Assembly: GCA_017408585.1 (NCBI GenBank)
Contig: JAFQUJ010000016.1
Location: forward strand, 45,094 to 109,093
From: Clostridia bacterium
Lineage (GTDB): Bacteria > Bacillota > Clostridia > Oscillospirales > CAG-272
DNA: 64,000 bases
Reading direction: 5' to 3'
In this document: one piece after another, positions 13,532 to 51,318 of the stretch
Numbering within the stretch: position 1 is the stretch's first letter
How the letters are laid out: each line of letters opens with the position of its first letter
Made by a program: the position numbers and the translations under genes
The notes under the pieces: model-generated
What the model was told of the DNA's origin: nothing
The model's input: the letters and a program-made list of their open reading frames with translations, nothing else
Databases searched by the model: none

Positions 13532-13682
13532 ATTTTCGCCTTTCTAATTATTTTTAGGTGAAATAATTATAGTACAAATATTTACTAATGTCAAGAGGTT
13601 TCAGTAAAAATGTTTACTATAATTTTAAGTAAATAAATTTACTTGTTATAATCAATATATAAAGGATTGGGAGGTGTTCATT

Positions 13683-13889
13683 ATGTATTCGTATGTAAAG
13701 CGAATTCGAGATCTAAGAGAGGATCATGACAAAACTCAAGAGGAAATTGCTGACATTTTGGGAACATCTCAAACTATGTACGCAAGATACGAAAGAGGCG
13801 CTAATGAGTTGCCTATTCGCCATCTTATCGCGCTATGCAAGTATTATAATGTTTCAGCCGATTATATTTTAGGGCTTAGCAACAAATAA
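13683..13889 (+). CDS. XRE-family helix-turn-helix transcriptional regulator
   Basis: MYSYVKRIRDLREDHDKTQEEIADILGTSQTMYARYERG is a Cro/CI-type HTH. ATG at 13683 follows GGGAGG. Confidence 0.8.
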   Translation: MYSYVKRIRDLREDHDKTQEEIADILGTSQTMYARYERGANELPIRHLIALCKYYNVSADYILGLSNK

Positions 13890-13933: not shown

Positions 13934-13962
13934 TTGACAGGTCAAATTTTGTGTGATATAAT
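13934..13962 (+). promoter_or_regulatory. consensus sigma70 promoter for the tRNA pair
   Basis: TTGACA (13934-13939), 17 nt spacer, TGaTATAAT (extended -10, TATAAT at 13957-13962). Confidence 0.7.
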
Positions 13963-13977
13963 CATAACGCTTGATAA

Positions 13978-14066
13978 GCCGATGTGGCGGAATTGGTAGA
14001 CGCCACGGACTTAAAATCCGTTGGGAAGAAATTCCCGTACCGGTTCGAGTCCGGTTATCGGCACCA
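13978..14066 (+). tRNA. tRNA-Leu (anticodon UAA), long variable arm, encoded CCA
   Basis: GCCGATG...CATCGGCACCA acceptor, anticodon loop CTTAAAA, long variable arm, GGTTCGAGTCC T-arm. Confidence 0.9.
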
Positions 14067-14073
14067 TTAATAT

Positions 14074-14151
<78 letters not shown>

Positions 14152-14186
14152 TGTTATGCATCCAATTTGGATGCCAACCCAAAAAA

Positions 14187-14217
14187 CCCAGATGTCGTAA
14201 GGCTTCTGGGCTTTTTT
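14187..14217 (+). terminator. terminator after the tRNA pair
   Basis: CCCAGA...TCTGGG stem followed by CTTTTTT. Confidence 0.5.
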
Positions 14218-14410
14218 ATACCCATTTTTTACAGTGCAATTTTGGTAGATGCCAAACGCCAAAAACGCCGTGTGGATGGGATCTGAACTTAAATAAACGA
14301 CTTTTCAGGGGAGCTTTTGCGATTCTTTTGTTCGCAAAAATTCTTTTTTCATTGTTTTATTTGTAAACTATTTGTGTTCAAATAATAATTCGGGATAATT
14401 ACAAAATGCC

Positions 14411-14439
14411 TTGATTTATTCATAAAAAAGTGATATAAT
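14411..14439 (+). promoter_or_regulatory. sigma70-like promoter upstream of the structured leader/sRNA
   Basis: TTGATT (14411-14416), 17 nt spacer, TGaTATAAT (TATAAT at 14434-14439). Confidence 0.6.
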
Positions 14440-14445
14440 AATAAT

Positions 14446-14652
14446 GCTAAACCAACTTAATATGCTAAAAAGAGCTTTTTTGTTTCCAAGGGGGGTACTA
14501 TACCCTTTTTTCGGCTTTCTACATATGGATTTGATAAAAATGCAAATCCCGCTTGTAGAAAGCAGATTAGCTCTGTCGTATTCAAGTTGGTTTAGCGACT
14601 TGGGGTTTGCGTTTTTTGTGCGTTGGCTCTGGTCAGCGCACTTTTTGATTTT
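14446..14652 (+). ncRNA. unclassified structured RNA: either a cis-regulatory leader of the lipoprotein gene or an independent sRNA
   Basis: Perfect 13 bp long-range helix 14446-14458/14584-14596. Perfect 10 bp helix 14514-14523/14554-14563 enclosing a 7 bp hairpin 14527-14533/14543-14549. 6 bp helix 14471-14476/14569-14574. Terminator-like 10 bp hairpin 14618-14641 followed by TTTTTGATTTT. Confidence 0.5.
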
Positions 14653-14658
14653 GGGGGT

Positions 14659-15513
14659 ATGACTGTGAAAAAATCTATATGGATAGCGTTAATACTGATG
14701 CTTGTTTGCATATTCTCTTTTTTTGCTTGTGATCAGGGGGATACACCGCCTAACAATGATGGAAATAATGATAACAATAATTCTACAGAATGCCAACATA
14801 CTTTTGGGAATTGGAATACCGTAAAACAAGCCACCTGCAAAGAAGAAGGCTCGCTTATTCGTACTTGTAGTAAATGCTACAAAACAGAGGAGTCTACCAT
14901 TTCCAAGACCGATACACATATATGGGCTCAAGCAACATGTTCTTCACCAAAGAAGTGTCAATTGTGTGGCACAATAGAGGGGGAGCCTCTTGAACATGAT
15001 TGGGGAAATCCAACTTGTACGACACCAAGATCTTGTTTGGTTTGTTGGACTGTTGATGAAAAATCTGAAGCATTAGGACATACGTTTGTAAATGGCGAAT
15101 GTCAGATTTGCGGGGATCAATCCGAAGATTATTTAGCAGATTATGACAAATATTTAATGGCGGCACATCTTTACCAAGCTGTAATAGATTCTGCAAAATT
15201 CCCGTCAAGTGTTCGCATTGAAAGAGCATATTATATAAATGATTTGGGAAAAGGATTTCCTGCCGTTAGATTAGAATGTGCGGCGGCAAATTCTATGGGT
15301 GGTTATGGTATTCTTTACGGAGTGGTAATACAGTATCCTTCGCAAGGTTATGAAGACAATCCTTATGCAGATCATGTTTATGTATACGAAGATTTATATT
15401 GTTTTGAATGCAGCATATATGATAGTTGCCCAGTGCTTAATTATAATGGATATGAGAAGCTCGATATAGAACGTATTATAACGGTTCATAATGAAGATAT
15501 CAACTTTGATTAA
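14659..15513 (+). CDS. putative lipoprotein with three Cys-rich (H-x-F/W...ATC...C-x2-C) repeats
   Basis: MTVKKSIWIALILMLVCIFSFFAC is a signal peptide with a lipobox Cys. ATG at 14659 follows GGGGGT. The rest is repeated Cys modules and a C-terminal globular part. Confidence 0.7.
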   Translation: MTVKKSIWIALILMLVCIFSFFACDQGDTPPNNDGNNDNNNSTECQHTFGNWNTVKQATCKEEGSLIRTCSKCYKTEESTISKTDTHIWAQATCSSPKKCQLCGTIEGEPLEHDWGNPTCTTPRSCLVCWTVDEKSEALGHTFVNGECQICGDQSEDYLADYDKYLMAAHLYQAVIDSAKFPSSVRIERAYYINDLGKGFPAVRLECAAANSMGGYGILYGVVIQYPSQGYEDNPYADHVYVYEDLYCFECSIYDSCPVLNYNGYEKLDIERIITVHNEDINFD

Positions 15514-15653
15514 ATTTAAAATAATCGATTTAAAGCAACGGTGGTTTGCATCTATTAAGGATGCACATGAAACGGACACCAAAATTCAAAAGCCCTTGAT
15601 TTTATTGACTTTTTGAGGGTGGCATCTATTAAGGCGGTACAACACAAGATAAA

Positions 15654-15685
15654 CAAAAAACGAACCGCTTTGGTTCGTTTTTTGT
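15654..15685 (+). terminator. rho-independent terminator
   Basis: AAAAAACGAACC-gcttt-GGTTCGTTTTTT. Confidence 0.65.
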
Positions 15686-15689
15686 TTAT

Positions 15690-15866
15690 CAGCTAAATTT
15701 GCACGAGTGCAAGATAAATTGAGTATATCTCAGCTAAATTCCTAACGGAGCTAGATTGGCTTTGCCAGCCATGGTGAGCAAATTTAATTTAGCTGTGTAA
15801 CAATTTCGCTAATGCGAAGATTTATCGTAGCATTAATTTCGCTATCACGGAGTGATAATTTAGCTA
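15690..15866. repeat. cluster of AGCTAAATT direct/inverted repeats and short palindromes (candidate structured RNA or protein-binding array)
   Basis: AGCTAAATT at 15691 and 15732, with the variant AGATAAATT at 15712. Inverted copies AATTTAGCT at 15786-15794 and 15857-15865. Small hairpins lie between them (TTGCA-cgag-TGCAA, TTCGC-taat-GCGAA, TATCAC-gga-GTGATA, GGCT-ttgcc-AGCC). Confidence 0.5.
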
Positions 15867-15932: not shown

Positions 15933-15958
15933 AAAGGACACCATTCGGTGTCCTTTTT
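15933..15958 (+). terminator. orphan rho-independent terminator (no CDS upstream of it)
   Basis: AAAGGACACC-attc-GGTGTCCTTT followed by TT. Confidence 0.6.
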
Positions 15959-16069: not shown

Positions 16070-18085
16070 ATGAAAAAAAGCTTAAAAGTTGGAATTGTCG
16101 CAATGATTATTTCTCTTATTGTGACTCTGGGGCTATGGGCGTTTGGTCTATTTGTTCTTGGCGACATAATTGGCGATCAGTTGGGCGGTGTTATATTTGC
16201 GATTTTGTTCTTTGCTGTTCTCTTTTTAATGATTGTTGATTTAATTATTGGTAGCATAATAGATAGAAAATATGCGAACAAAAGCGTTGGGACAATACAT
16301 CAGCTTATTCGTGAGCGACAGGAGCGCATAAACGAGGATCTTGAAAAATCAACAAGAAAAATCCACGCCATAGCGACGCTATGCAAGGTATTTATTTTCG
16401 TTTTGACGCTTTTGTGTCATGCTCTTGCCTTATTTATTGGCGCTATGGGTCCGGAGCCTAGCATTCTTATGGCGTTTATAATTCCTGTGAATTTGAGCAT
16501 ATATGCAAAAATTGCGGTTTCATATTTTAGCTTTGAGCTTCCCGACACATATGTAACTGACGACGAATTTCCTCTTATATATGGGCTTGCTAACAAGGCT
16601 ATGAAGGAGCTTGGACTCAAGGGACGCCTTTACATCTTTCCAACAAATGATTTTGACGCATCAATTGCACAAATTAACGGTGGGTACATAATTAACCTTG
16701 GCACAAGCCTTGCAAGAGCCTCCTACGAGGACGAGCTTTATAGCATATTTTTGCACGAATTCGCACACATGTCGCAATCTACTCCAAAATCTGTTGGCTA
16801 TCACTTTATTAATCTTATCGAGGGTGAAAACGAGGGCTTTGGATTTTTCAATGTGATTTGGAGCATCTTCTTTGTCGGCTTTATGAAGCTATTCTATTTC
16901 GAGCATAATTTTTATAGAGCTCTTGCCTCTGTTCAAATTGAAGCCATGGCTGACTCTATTGTTTTAAGCAAGGGTGATGCGATAGCATATGCTAACGCCT
17001 TAGCAAAGGCATCAATACACAATAGGTTTGACAGAGTTTTCTCCGAGTTCTCCTCCGGCATTTTAAACGAGGGTGATACTATTCGTGAGGATATCGCGAC
17101 GCTATTTTATAACCAATATGCCGACACCTTTGTAAAGGTCAAGGACAAGTGGCTTGTCGAGCTTGAGGTGGAGCTTCAGCCAAGGAATGCCTCTCACCCA
17201 ATTTACAGGCTTAGACGAGATGCTCTTGGCGTTAGTGCTGACGAGGTAAATCCGAGCTTGCCCGATATCTCCTATGCTCTTGCTCTCGAGGCTGACAGGC
17301 TTTTAAGGTGGGCTGACAGCTTAACCCTTGAGCACTTCAAGAATGACTACGAGCAGATACACAAAATACATTATCTTGACCCTCTCAACATTGTAAACGC
17401 TTGGGAGGCAAACGAGCGAGCTTGCACAATTGAAGAAAGCGTCGAGATAATTCACGCACTAAGAATGCTTAACAGAAAAAGCGATGCAGAGGAGCTTTGT
17501 GACAGAATAATTGCTGAAGCGCCAAATCCAAACGCTTGCGCTCACGCTACATTTTACAAGGCGTACAGGCTTTTATCGAGAGGCGACAACTCCGGAATCG
17601 ACATTCTTTATGGACTTTGTGACACAAATCAAAACTATGCAGAGGAAGCTCTTAACCTAATTGGTGAATACTGCTGTGCAAAGGGCTTGCAGGAGCGTCT
17701 TGACGAATATCGCACAAGAGCGGTTGAAATTATTCAGCGAACGGTTGACGAGCAAGAGTTTTCGACGCTTAGCTACAAGGACAATTTAATTCATGACGAT
17801 ATGCCACAAGAGCTTATTGACAGCCATATAAGCTACATTCTTGGCGTCGGTGAAAATCGTATAAAAGAAATACATCTTGTAAAAAAGGTGACTAGCAAGG
17901 GAGATTCGACAAGTATATTCCTAGTAGATTTTCTGCCGAATACTGATTACGAGGCGGTAAATCGAATTATGAACAAGATATTCATTCATTTAGATGCATG
18001 CGAGGAGCAATATTCTCTGTTCCTTTTAGATGCGCATTACAGAAGCGTTTTACAAAAGCTAAACACCTGTGTTTACAAGGCTTAG
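16070..18085 (+). CDS. membrane-anchored putative zinc metalloprotease (HExxH) with helical-repeat C-terminal domain
   Basis: 671 aa. N-terminal TM segments, an FLHEFAHM (HExxH) motif, and an alpha-helical, TPR-like C-terminal half. Exact family not recognised. Confidence 0.5.
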   Translation: MKKSLKVGIVAMIISLIVTLGLWAFGLFVLGDIIGDQLGGVIFAILFFAVLFLMIVDLIIGSIIDRKYANKSVGTIHQLIRERQERINEDLEKSTRKIHAIATLCKVFIFVLTLLCHALALFIGAMGPEPSILMAFIIPVNLSIYAKIAVSYFSFELPDTYVTDDEFPLIYGLANKAMKELGLKGRLYIFPTNDFDASIAQINGGYIINLGTSLARASYEDELYSIFLHEFAHMSQSTPKSVGYHFINLIEGENEGFGFFNVIWSIFFVGFMKLFYFEHNFYRALASVQIEAMADSIVLSKGDAIAYANALAKASIHNRFDRVFSEFSSGILNEGDTIREDIATLFYNQYADTFVKVKDKWLVELEVELQPRNASHPIYRLRRDALGVSADEVNPSLPDISYALALEADRLLRWADSLTLEHFKNDYEQIHKIHYLDPLNIVNAWEANERACTIEESVEIIHALRMLNRKSDAEELCDRIIAEAPNPNACAHATFYKAYRLLSRGDNSGIDILYGLCDTNQNYAEEALNLIGEYCCAKGLQERLDEYRTRAVEIIQRTVDEQEFSTLSYKDNLIHDDMPQELIDSHISYILGVGENRIKEIHLVKKVTSKGDSTSIFLVDFLPNTDYEAVNRIMNKIFIHLDACEEQYSLFLLDAHYRSVLQKLNTCVYKA

Positions 18086-50649: not shown

Positions 50650-50800
50650 GTTAATCCAAAGACAGCAGGTCACGGTAATTGCATTTATGCTCCCTGCCGA
50701 GGAAGAATTTAAATATGAATTTAAAATCTTTTTTCGGTGTGCATTTTTGCGATTTCGGGAAAAGATTTTTCTTTTTGCTGTAAAGGAAATAATACAGGAG
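50650..50800 (+). promoter_or_regulatory. ribosomal protein L10 leader (autoregulatory 5'UTR)
   Basis: About 160 nt of structured UTR between a consensus promoter and rplJ, the position and size expected for the Firmicute L10 leader. I did not verify the covariance-model structure. Confidence 0.5.
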
Positions 50801-50808
50801 GTTGTTTT

Positions 50809-51318
50809 ATGCCAAGTAATTCAGTTCTTGAACAAAAGAAGGCCGTTGTTGCTGAGCTCGTTGACAAAATCAGAAGAGCTACATCCGGTGTTCTAGTTCA
50901 ATACCAAGGTATCACAGTTGAAAACGATACCAAAATGCGTGCTGCTTTCCGTAAGGCTGGCGTTGACTACATGGTTATTAAGAATACTCTTATCGGCCGT
51001 GCTTGTGACGAGGTTGGTTATGGTGCTATGAAGGAAAAGCTTAACGGTATGACCGCTATTGCTATTAGCTACGATGACCCTATCGCTCCCGCCAAGATTG
51101 CTAAGGAATACGCAGACAAGGTTGAAACCTTTGAAATCAAGGGTGGATTCATCGATAATGGCGTTGTTGATGTTGACGCTGTTATGGCTCTTGCTGAAAT
51201 TCCTTCAAAGGAAATTCTTCTCGCAAGATTTTTGGGAAGCATTACAGGTCCTATCTCAGGATTTGCTCGTGCTATCCAAGCAGTTATCGACCAAAAGGGC
51301 GAGGCTGCTGCTGAATAA
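50809..51318 (+). CDS. rplJ: 50S ribosomal protein L10
   Basis: 169 aa. ATG at 50809 follows ACAGGAGG. KKAVVAELVDKIRRATSGVLVQYQGITVENDTKMR is typical L10. Confidence 0.9.
   Translation: MPSNSVLEQKKAVVAELVDKIRRATSGVLVQYQGITVENDTKMRAAFRKAGVDYMVIKNTLIGRACDEVGYGAMKEKLNGMTAIAISYDDPIAPAKIAKEYADKVETFEIKGGFIDNGVVDVDAVMALAEIPSKEILLARFLGSITGPISGFARAIQAVIDQKGEAAAE

Follow-up and report, generated by a model that had tools for sequence, protein, structure and literature searches.

A family of portable promoter-leader-terminator cassettes from gut and rumen Clostridia, carried in chromosomes and mobile elements and by phages

We analyzed a stretch of 64,000 nucleotides (nt) from a Clostridia bacterium (GenBank assembly GCA_017408585.1, contig JAFQUJ010000016.1, positions 45,094 to 109,093 of the forward strand; hereafter, the window), in which an earlier reading of the letters alone (the sequence-only reading) had pointed to a structured RNA between a promoter and an intrinsic terminator, directly upstream of a gene for a Cys-repeat lipoprotein. 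This unit is one copy of a new family of portable promoter-leader-terminator cassettes that gut and rumen Clostridia carry in their chromosomes and mobile elements, and their phages as well. The cassette, including its promoter, was found before at least 15 unrelated genes in chromosomes, transposon-like elements and phages, and its helices have kept their pairing through extensive sequence change. We tentatively read it as a cis-acting attenuator in which a trans-acting factor would aid read-through of the terminator.

The sequence-only reading had listed a TTGATT-17-TGaTATAAT promoter, a series of helices and a terminator, and each of them was recovered from the window sequence at the positions it gave (Table 1). 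A consensus scan matched the promoter at 10 of 12 consensus positions plus the TG of an extended -10, and transcription is predicted to start at about 14446, at the foot of the closing helix P1. This helix comprises 13 perfect base pairs (bp) and 19 bp overall with one bulged C (C14583), so that its arms are inverted repeats, perfect over 13 bp and imperfect over 19 bp, lying 125 bp apart. The minimum free energy of 14440-14660 is -77.8 kcal/mol compared to -52.7±4.4 for dinucleotide shuffles (z = -5.7, with 0 of 200 shuffles as good), and the domain closed by P1 reached z = -6.8 by itself, again with no shuffle as good. The terminator scan and folding gave a terminator stem of 10 bp, 6 of them G-C, at -14.7 kcal/mol; TTTTTGATTTT comes after it, and only 7 nt separate the terminator from the ribosome-binding site (RBS) of the lipoprotein gene. 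Another hit of the terminator scan, an alternative hairpin at 14581-14604, was discarded as it is not conserved: copies of type 2 have an A-C mismatch there and L008 a bulge. By BLAST and by covariance model, the cassette is single-copy in the window.

Relatives were searched using as protein query a spurious open reading frame (ORF) of 72 amino acids (aa) that covers the element, since gene callers sometimes translate it. This search returned 27 clusters in which the translated core was common and both ends differed, and a profile search of 1.84 billion representatives returned 42 clusters. About 35 loci were assembled from the contigs of these clusters and from a scan of metagenome contigs with the invariant 19-mer TTCAAGTTGGTTTAGCGAC, the most conserved stretch of the family, formed by the P1 3' arm and the first bases of the linker. 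In these loci the homologous block measures about 250 bp at 80-99.6% identity, and it runs from just upstream of the -35 (about 8 nt) to the T-run of the terminator; such identity over about 250 nt was seen before at least 12 unrelated downstream clusters. The promoter is present in all copies, L008-L016 having a -35 TTGACA at equal spacing, and exactly 6 nt always lie between the -10 and the G of GCYAAA at which P1 starts, while every full copy has the terminator. All copies with readable downstream DNA are co-oriented with the gene that follows, with the RBS 4-45 nt after the T-run and no separate promoter in between, and co-orientation and leader position also hold for all true copies that were found by DNA pattern alone. 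Each fetched locus has one cassette.

The genes that follow the cassette have little in common. They encode several BspA-type leucine-rich repeat (LRR) or Cys-rich lipoproteins, VanZ, LiaF-like, flavodoxin-like and DUF6591 or DUF6897 proteins, a DrrA-like ABC ATPase, a 243-aa protein without Pfam match, a tyrosine-recombinase-domain protein of about 1160 aa, and phage proteins. The recombinase-domain protein is preceded by the cassette in nine contigs, L008-L016 (for example L008 1100-4074); it has an N-terminal SAM-like and a tyrosine-recombinase catalytic domain followed by about 900 unassigned aa, and a gene for an NYN nuclease together with TnpV/DUF6809 lies upstream. In L017, L018, L021 and L010, a block made of TnpV, DUF6809, the cassette and VanZ was observed, which follows different chromosomal genes (a GH38 mannosidase in L017, a ribulose-phosphate epimerase in L018). 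This suggests that the block is a small mobile element carrying the cassette and its cargo.

The sequence-only reading had proposed covariation in homologous regions as a check on its helices, and the alignments bear the helices out. RNAalifold on 12 distinct close copies (alignment A3) recovered the same helices; in these copies 97.7% of the alignment cells were paired and 9 pairs had changed on both sides, compared to 2.9±1.3 in shuffled alignments (0 of 500 as many) and 0-3 in slid controls. When the phage lineage was added (alignment A4, 16 sequences), 29 pairs had changed on both sides compared to 11.1±2.3 (0 of 500; slid controls 2-9), with 97% of the cells paired. The both-side changes among the 16 sequences include 7 pairs of P1, 7 pairs of P4, and 1 pair of the terminator together with a paired deletion; the seven of P1 all occur in the phage lineage. 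The translations of more distant members imply, from their codons only, that other P1 pairs have changed as well (U-A to C-G; C-G to A-U), and divergent copies folded alone gave the same architecture with z between -5.8 and -7.4.

The helices differ in how they vary. All 12 copies of A3 have the same sequence in the outer 13 bp of P1, and a thirteenth close copy, L050, has a single C-to-A change in the 5' arm. P2 is the most variable helix: L023 and L024 replace its sequence and keep the pairing, with 4 pairs changed on both sides. Both P2 and P3 are hypervariable, with another topology in the phage type; for P3 the variation gives weaker support, as two copies break a G-C pair. The lower stem of P4 is made of four unrelated sequences across the lineages, complementary in each, and all of them share a nearly invariant P4b stem top and loop. 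The near-fixed parts are the outer P1 arms, the P4b hairpin with its loop, the linker GUUUGCGUUUUUUG and the base of the terminator. Linker and terminator base are the most conserved, even in copies scoring 58-90 bits, and GUUUGCGUUUUUUG is kept in the most divergent copies. Terminator variants consist of a U-A to C-G change, the paired deletion and a UUCG-loop variant. Taken together, changes that keep the structure, side by side with fixed loops and a fixed linker, indicate selection on the folded transcript. The linker might, by its TTNTTT motif, act as an RNA polymerase pause site.

The window copy precedes a 284-aa lipoprotein with the lipobox FFAC and CxxC repeats. It has repeated Cys-rich modules (H-x-W ... 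C-x2-C) and forms a paralogous family with the proteins of L022, L034, P0062, P0064 and P0065, and longer members of this family add BspA-type LRR domains. At least 7 different lipoprotein paralogues are preceded by the cassette. The sequence-only reading had placed the element directly upstream of the Cys-repeat lipoprotein gene. Among GTDB species representatives, this lipoprotein has a single relative, L002 (a metagenome-assembled genome of Christensenellaceae; 80% aa identity), which retains the promoter and the first ~35 transcribed nt and has lost 14478-14653 between TTTT microhomologies, a deletion that puts the promoter directly onto the RBS; its orphaned P1 arm has since acquired 3 substitutions. 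A 98%-identical strain, L003, carries the cassette. Distant homologues of the lipoprotein (L004-L006) have upstream regions unrelated to the cassette. A leader private to this lipoprotein family was therefore rejected, as L002 lacks the domain, L004-L006 differ upstream, and unrelated genes carry the unit. The loss in L002 suggests that the domain may have a negative and dispensable role. L040, a 708-bp contig of 1.4x coverage, has only the linker, terminator and lipoprotein, and unrelated GC-rich DNA is joined to them exactly after the P1 3' arm (...TCGTCG|GACTTGGGG), a junction that could be chimeric or could reflect a genuine rearrangement at the boundary of the repeat.

Scanning viral contigs with the linker 18-mer GTTTGCGTTTTTTGTGCG revealed five divergent full-length copies (88-90 bits). 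All five lie inside head modules, adjoining a major head protein (PHROG 371) and on the strand opposite to the head genes. The phage unit has a TTGCAA-17-TGCTATAAT promoter, the 6-nt gap to P1, the domain, the terminator and an RBS, and its cargo is a 53-aa membrane protein with a 112-aa lipoprotein, in a moron arrangement. The first viral pattern match, L007, was a chance match within GC-rich coding DNA, viral scans with a 16-mer and with an AT-rich 18-mer gave chance matches only, and BLAST of phages and plasmids with the element returned nothing useful.

A further viral contig (L120, from IMG/VR) carries the promoter TTGATA-17-TGGTATACT, then 6 nt and GCCAAAC..., with the linker and terminator on the same strand. 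The interior enclosed by P1, on the contrary, matches the covariance model on the opposite strand (59 bits, model positions 1-152), so that the transcript order is P4' and then P3', with complemented loops. This shows that an inversion between the P1 arms has happened in L120, a lineage that was sampled once. Upstream of this copy are two large serine recombinase genes, which end at a distance of about 60 nt from it. The region 1-7670 of L120 holds these tandem recombinases, an HTH_38 protein and a protein with DUF6273 and Listeria-Bacteroides repeats; the latter, together with a weak bAvd-like match (26.5 bits, below the Pfam cut-off of 40), gives a hint of a diversity-generating retroelement. 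An inverted interior was found in none of the 27 or 42 ORF clusters, and those that span the interior all have it in the common orientation, although a flip within the close lineages should also have yielded ORFs with flanks or interior in common with the query. A junction pattern of the phage type gave 0 inverted compared to 5 common-orientation copies in IMG/VR; assemblies report the majority orientation only. For the window copy, a flip of 14459-14583 would create the junctions AACCAACTTGAATACGACAGAGC and GCTCTTTTTAGCATATTAAGTTGG.

The flanks revealed how the cassette behaves as DNA. L019 and L031 are 95.4% identical over 373 nt upstream and 99.6% in the element, with unrelated downstream sequences, while L019 and L017 share the downstream VanZ region (99.8% over 584 nt) and the element (98.0%), with unrelated upstream sequences. 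In addition, many contigs end inside the cassette, at distances consistent with repeat-induced assembly breaks. Because flanks reassort and contigs break inside it, the cassette shows itself as a recombination junction and a dispersed, recombining repeat. Homology passes the left arm by about 40 nt and the right arm by about 55 nt, and by about 100 nt further in L022, L023 and L034, and no target-site duplication was found at either homology boundary. A miniature inverted-repeat transposable element (MITE) was rejected, considering the homology beyond the inverted repeats, the lack of target duplication, the single orientation and the fixed place before a start codon. An XRE/HTH_3 regulator of 71 aa is encoded upstream of the cassette in the window (13674-13889), and an unrelated HTH_3 gene lies directly upstream of it in L019, L031, L038 and L050.

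How could such a unit work? In the attenuator reading that we tentatively favor, the strong sigma-A promoter would start transcription straight into the ~150-nt domain, where the 19-bp P1 would close a junction bearing the variable P2 and P3 and the conserved P4/P4b hairpin. By default, most transcripts would end at the terminator as an RNA of about 205 nt, and the downstream gene would be expressed only when RNA polymerase reads through. A trans-acting factor would determine read-through: most likely a protein, it would recognize P1, the P4b hairpin with its loop and the linker, and act by protein-dependent or processive antitermination rather than by a ligand-driven swap of helices. Copying or recombination of the cassette before unrelated genes would then put them under common control. 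The constant order of the parts and the promoter-gene fusion of L002 argue for a terminator that gates expression and for a domain in control of that gate. A trans-acting factor is favored because no antiterminator was found, P1 seems too stable to open, and linker and terminator are conserved in sequence.

Several observations weigh against this attenuator reading. Alignment A4 was fitted to the model, and much of the covariation comes from three divergent lineages. The invariant outer 13 bp of P1 fit an inverted repeat recognized by a protein at the DNA level as well as they fit an RNA helix. Copies before different genes are 97.6-99.6% identical, promoter included, a pattern typical of a DNA repeat that has spread recently and not of regulatory paralogues that diverged long ago. 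Neither a conserved antiterminator nor any other pairing with the terminator arms was found by RNAalifold on truncated alignments, which returned only a weak G-U helix between linker and terminator loop, not convincingly conserved; P1 does not overlap the terminator, and it is too long and stable for ligand dependence. The heterogeneous downstream genes suggest no single physiological signal or ligand-linked pathway. Finally, the interior of L120 is inverted relative to promoter and terminator, and conserved hairpin sequences are kept there on what is now the antisense strand. The sequence-only reading had seen in the element the layout of a riboswitch or attenuator leader: the conserved leader domain with its terminator stands, while the absence of an antiterminator, the near-invariant 19-bp P1, the mixed gene set, and a linker and terminator among the most conserved parts make it an incomplete riboswitch. 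The cassette is not a classical riboswitch, because no antiterminator was found; a shared pathway is also missing, and what it does have is a covarying sensor-like domain.

The inversion in L120 raises the alternative of an invertible leader switch, in which the P1 arms would serve as inverted repeats and a trans-acting recombinase, recognizing the shared repeat GCTAAACCAACTT at many loci, would flip the 125-bp interior, so that surface or envelope proteins and phage morons would be ON or OFF in subpopulations. The fate of the leader would differ by orientation, for example with P3 and its U-run being terminator-like one way, or with Rho-dependent termination one way. We consider this doubtful, yet the most serious rival of the attenuator reading. 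It agrees with the two serine recombinases beside the inverted copy, with repeat arms that are invariant within lineages and change symmetrically between them, with BspA-LRR lipoproteins and phage lipoprotein morons as a typical phase-variation gene set, with the copies that adjoin TnpV or precede the tyrosine-recombinase-domain protein, and also with the length of P1 and the lack of an antiterminator. However, no inverted isomer was seen in the close lineages or in the phage type, and the main terminator lies outside the P1 repeats and forms in both orientations of the interior. P3 is weak (-8.3 kcal/mol), was not among the terminator-scan hits, resembles a terminator only in the common orientation, owing to its U run, and makes an unconvincing one in L120 and in the phage type. 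A DNA switch would moreover need neither the compensatory evolution of P2 and P4 nor the strand-specific conservation of the P4b loop, and the ORFs around the window copy, scanned only in part, revealed no recombinase gene. A combination of both mechanisms seems rather unlikely: this would be a portable switch with two layers, present in the chromosomes of Christensenellales-like gut bacteria and in their transposons and phages. In it, a trans-acting recombinase would use the common 13-bp repeats to flip the leader at many loci at once, and the folded RNA of the common orientation, with its conserved linker and terminator, would gate read-through by binding a dedicated factor.

Two other explanations set the control of the downstream gene aside, and we regard each as improbable. 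The sequence-only reading had allowed for a stand-alone small RNA (sRNA), and the terminated ~205-nt transcript could in principle exert its effect in trans, for instance by way of the linker or the P4b loop, while the genes would receive leak-through. The strong promoter, the good terminator, the many copies and a conserved single-stranded linker by the terminator, which resembles the layout of an sRNA seed or chaperone site, would suit a multi-copy trans-acting sRNA. Nevertheless, this is a poor fit, as the fixed coupling to a co-oriented gene, with the RBS so close and no intervening promoter, is unexpected for a free-standing sRNA gene, and L002 keeps the promoter of the gene after losing the RNA. 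A selfish or neutral dispersed repeat, MITE-like or a mobile promoter, would have hairpins as mere by-products of inverted repeats and would donate only its promoter; the near-identical copies before unrelated genes, the reassorting flanks of L019, L031 and L017, the contigs breaking inside, the similarity of P1 to terminal inverted repeats of 13-19 bp, and the agreement with the published definition of mobile promoters speak for this little probable view. On the contrary, the arms are not the ends of the element and no target-site duplication accompanies it, no insertion was found that runs against the gene or lies distant from a start codon, helices are kept by compensatory changes through 80% and lower identity with fixed loops and linker, and a terminator between promoter and gene is useless to a promoter donor.

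We also compared the cassette with known systems. It shares with terminator-based 5' leaders (riboswitches; PyrR, TRAP and LicT/RAT attenuators; HK022 put; the Bacillus eps-associated RNA) the order of promoter, structured domain, intrinsic terminator and RBS, as well as covarying helices and, in L002, a natural deletion of domain and terminator that leaves a promoter-gene fusion. Unlike them, it has no competing antiterminator, its 19-bp closing helix is conserved in sequence, and its expression platform is as conserved as the 'aptamer'; its genes are mixed, the promoter travels along, copies are near-identical, and no Rfam family corresponds to it. Invertible leader switches were reportedly described for cwpV and flgB of Clostridioides difficile by Emerson et al. 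in 2009, Anjuwon-Foster and Tamayo in 2017 and Trzilova et al. in 2020. The cassette is similar in its inverted repeats flanking a 125-bp segment between a fixed promoter and a gene, in the surface proteins encoded and in the one inverted copy by recombinases. It differs in that repeat and interior are common to many loci and phages, a strong terminator lies outside the repeats, the hairpins covary, and all other copies with readable interior are in one common orientation.

Neisseria Correia, pneumococcal BOX, ERIC and Bacillus cereus bcr1 elements are likewise multi-copy intergenic repeats of 100-250 bp with terminal inverted repeats, and they can contain promoters and form long transcript hairpins. 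Repeats of this type insert in both directions into many kinds of intergenic sites, duplicate their target and stop at the terminal repeats. The cassette always stands before a start codon and in one orientation, and its homology runs past the repeats. Classical phage morons consist of promoter, gene and terminator; the autonomous unit of cassette, 53-aa and 112-aa proteins, present in five contigs, is comparable, and the structured leader and terminator before the gene, shared with chromosomal genes, set it apart. Integron attC sites are similar as imperfect palindromes of like size, with conserved outer boxes, a variable self-complementary center and an extrahelical base, located between unrelated co-oriented genes, and AACCAAC and GTTGGTT of the cassette each match RYYYAAC and GTTRRRY at 6 of 7 positions. 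Homology far past the boxes, orientation, the promoter and terminator within the unit, and the absence of arrays (one copy in 64 kb, one per fetched locus) led us to reject attC; no IntI turned up, although no search was aimed at intI. Putative mobile promoters are upstream regions of high similarity (at least 80% over at least 50 nt) found before unrelated genes, some of which carry RNA motifs according to their authors, and Correia, ERIC and REPIN are known as promoter carriers (Matus-Garcia, Nijveen and van Passel 2012; PMC3575422). The cassette corresponds to this definition (at least 80% identity, at least 50 nt, unrelated coding sequences) and shares its near-identical upstream units, common to genomes and mobile DNA. 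It goes beyond it as an end-to-end unit of promoter, 150-nt domain, terminator and often RBS, with covariation and with phage morons.

The sequence-only reading could match the element to no RNA class, and Rfam 15 covariance models agree. At gathering score, the whole window contained only 2 transfer RNAs (tRNAs) and a ribosomal protein L10 leader; region 14150-14800 gave only noise at E up to 10 (best 22.9 bits compared to a gathering score of 43), and four homologous loci had no match at E up to 1. The suspicion that the 72-aa ORF is spurious proved right: it is spurious because 1-nt indels break its frame at many alignment columns between copies, several copies (type 2 among them) read ATG-TAA at its second in-frame ATG, 14462, and Pfam has no match to it. 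Many ORFs called over the cassette start at the position of this ATG, and that of L050 is read in another frame. A minus-strand 42-aa ORF was likewise rejected as coding on frameshifts, and an extended-P2 variant deduced from protein P0037 was a reading-frame artifact once the DNA was read. As a consequence of such gene calls, at least 42 clusters of database 'hypothetical proteins' (P0027-P0083, 46-650 aa) are translations of the cassette RNA, some of them fused in frame to the true downstream gene via a wrong upstream start codon, and these clusters call for re-annotation. No paper describing the cassette was found in a literature search, and the first 200 supplementary files of Fremin and Bhatt 2021 do not contain its 16-mer.

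Table 1. Parts of the cassette copy in the window and the gene that follows it (positions of the window, + strand).
Feature	Position	Strand	Remarks
Whole cassette copy	14403-14652	+	Upstream of the 284-aa lipoprotein gene
Sigma-A type promoter	14411-14439	+	-35 TTGATT 14411-14416, 17-nt spacer, extended -10 TGaTATAAT 14431-14439
P1, 5' arm	14446-14464	+	Pairs with 14577-14596; left inverted-repeat arm in the outer 13 nt, 14446-14458
J1/2 junction, A-rich, CUAAAA	14465-14470	+	A run present in all copies (alignments A3 and A4)
P2, 5' strand	14471-14481	+	14471-14476 and 14479-14481; partner 14564-14574
P3 hairpin, GGGGGGUAC-UAU-ACCCUUUUUU	14488-14510	+	14488-14497 with 14501-14510
P4 with enclosed P4b	14514-14563	+	P4 14514-14523/14554-14563; P4b 14527-14533/14543-14549
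P4b loop, 9 nt, AUAAAAAUG	14534-14542	+	Enclosed within P4b
P2, 3' strand	14564-14574	+	14569-14574 with 14471-14476; 14564-14566 with 14479-14481
P1, 3' arm, bulged C14583	14577-14596	+	Right inverted-repeat arm in the outer 13 nt, 14584-14596
Single-stranded linker, 21 nt, GACUUGGGGUUUGCGUUUUUU	14597-14617	+	Between P1 3' arm and terminator
Intrinsic terminator	14618-14652	+	Stem 14618-14627/14632-14641, loop UCUG, then UUUUUGAUUUU
RBS and lipoprotein gene	14653-15513	+	RBS GGGGG 14653-14657, ATG 14659
72-aa ORF	14444-14662	+	Spurious; translated RNA element

Other features of the window were noted around the cassette. Upstream, a perfect-consensus promoter (TTGACA-17-TATAAT with TG, 13934-13962) drives tRNA-Leu(taa) (13978-14066) and tRNA-Met(cat) (14073-14150), a pair followed by a terminator-like hairpin at about 14172-14205, and a second perfect-consensus promoter points in the opposite direction (13594-13566). 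Downstream, the interval from the lipoprotein gene to a 671-aa gene at 16070 contains a minus-strand terminator with a 19-bp hairpin (15648-15690) and a 10-bp palindromic, possibly bidirectional terminator (15933-15956). The L10 leader (RF00557, 50638-50781, 52 bits compared to a gathering score of 44) precedes a 193-aa ORF at 50737-51318.

In conclusion, the structured non-coding unit of promoter, multi-helix domain and terminator that had been proposed for the window is present, folds far better than shuffled sequence and shows covariation of its helices, and it represents a new RNA family, absent from Rfam 15, in Christensenellaceae and relatives, whose regulation is almost unstudied. The reuse of a whole control unit before unrelated genes offers a concrete and testable case of regulon assembly by 'mobile promoters'. 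If the two-layer switch were true, the cassette would define a 'leader inverton' regulon, like Bacteroides Mpi but located downstream of the promoter, in which copy-and-paste of a 250-bp unit would recruit surface lipoproteins, envelope proteins and morons into one phase-variable or inducible program. The genes that the cassette would control are mostly those of BspA-type LRR lipoproteins and envelope proteins, which face the host and phages; inducible or phase-variable control of them would therefore matter for colonization and for phage resistance.

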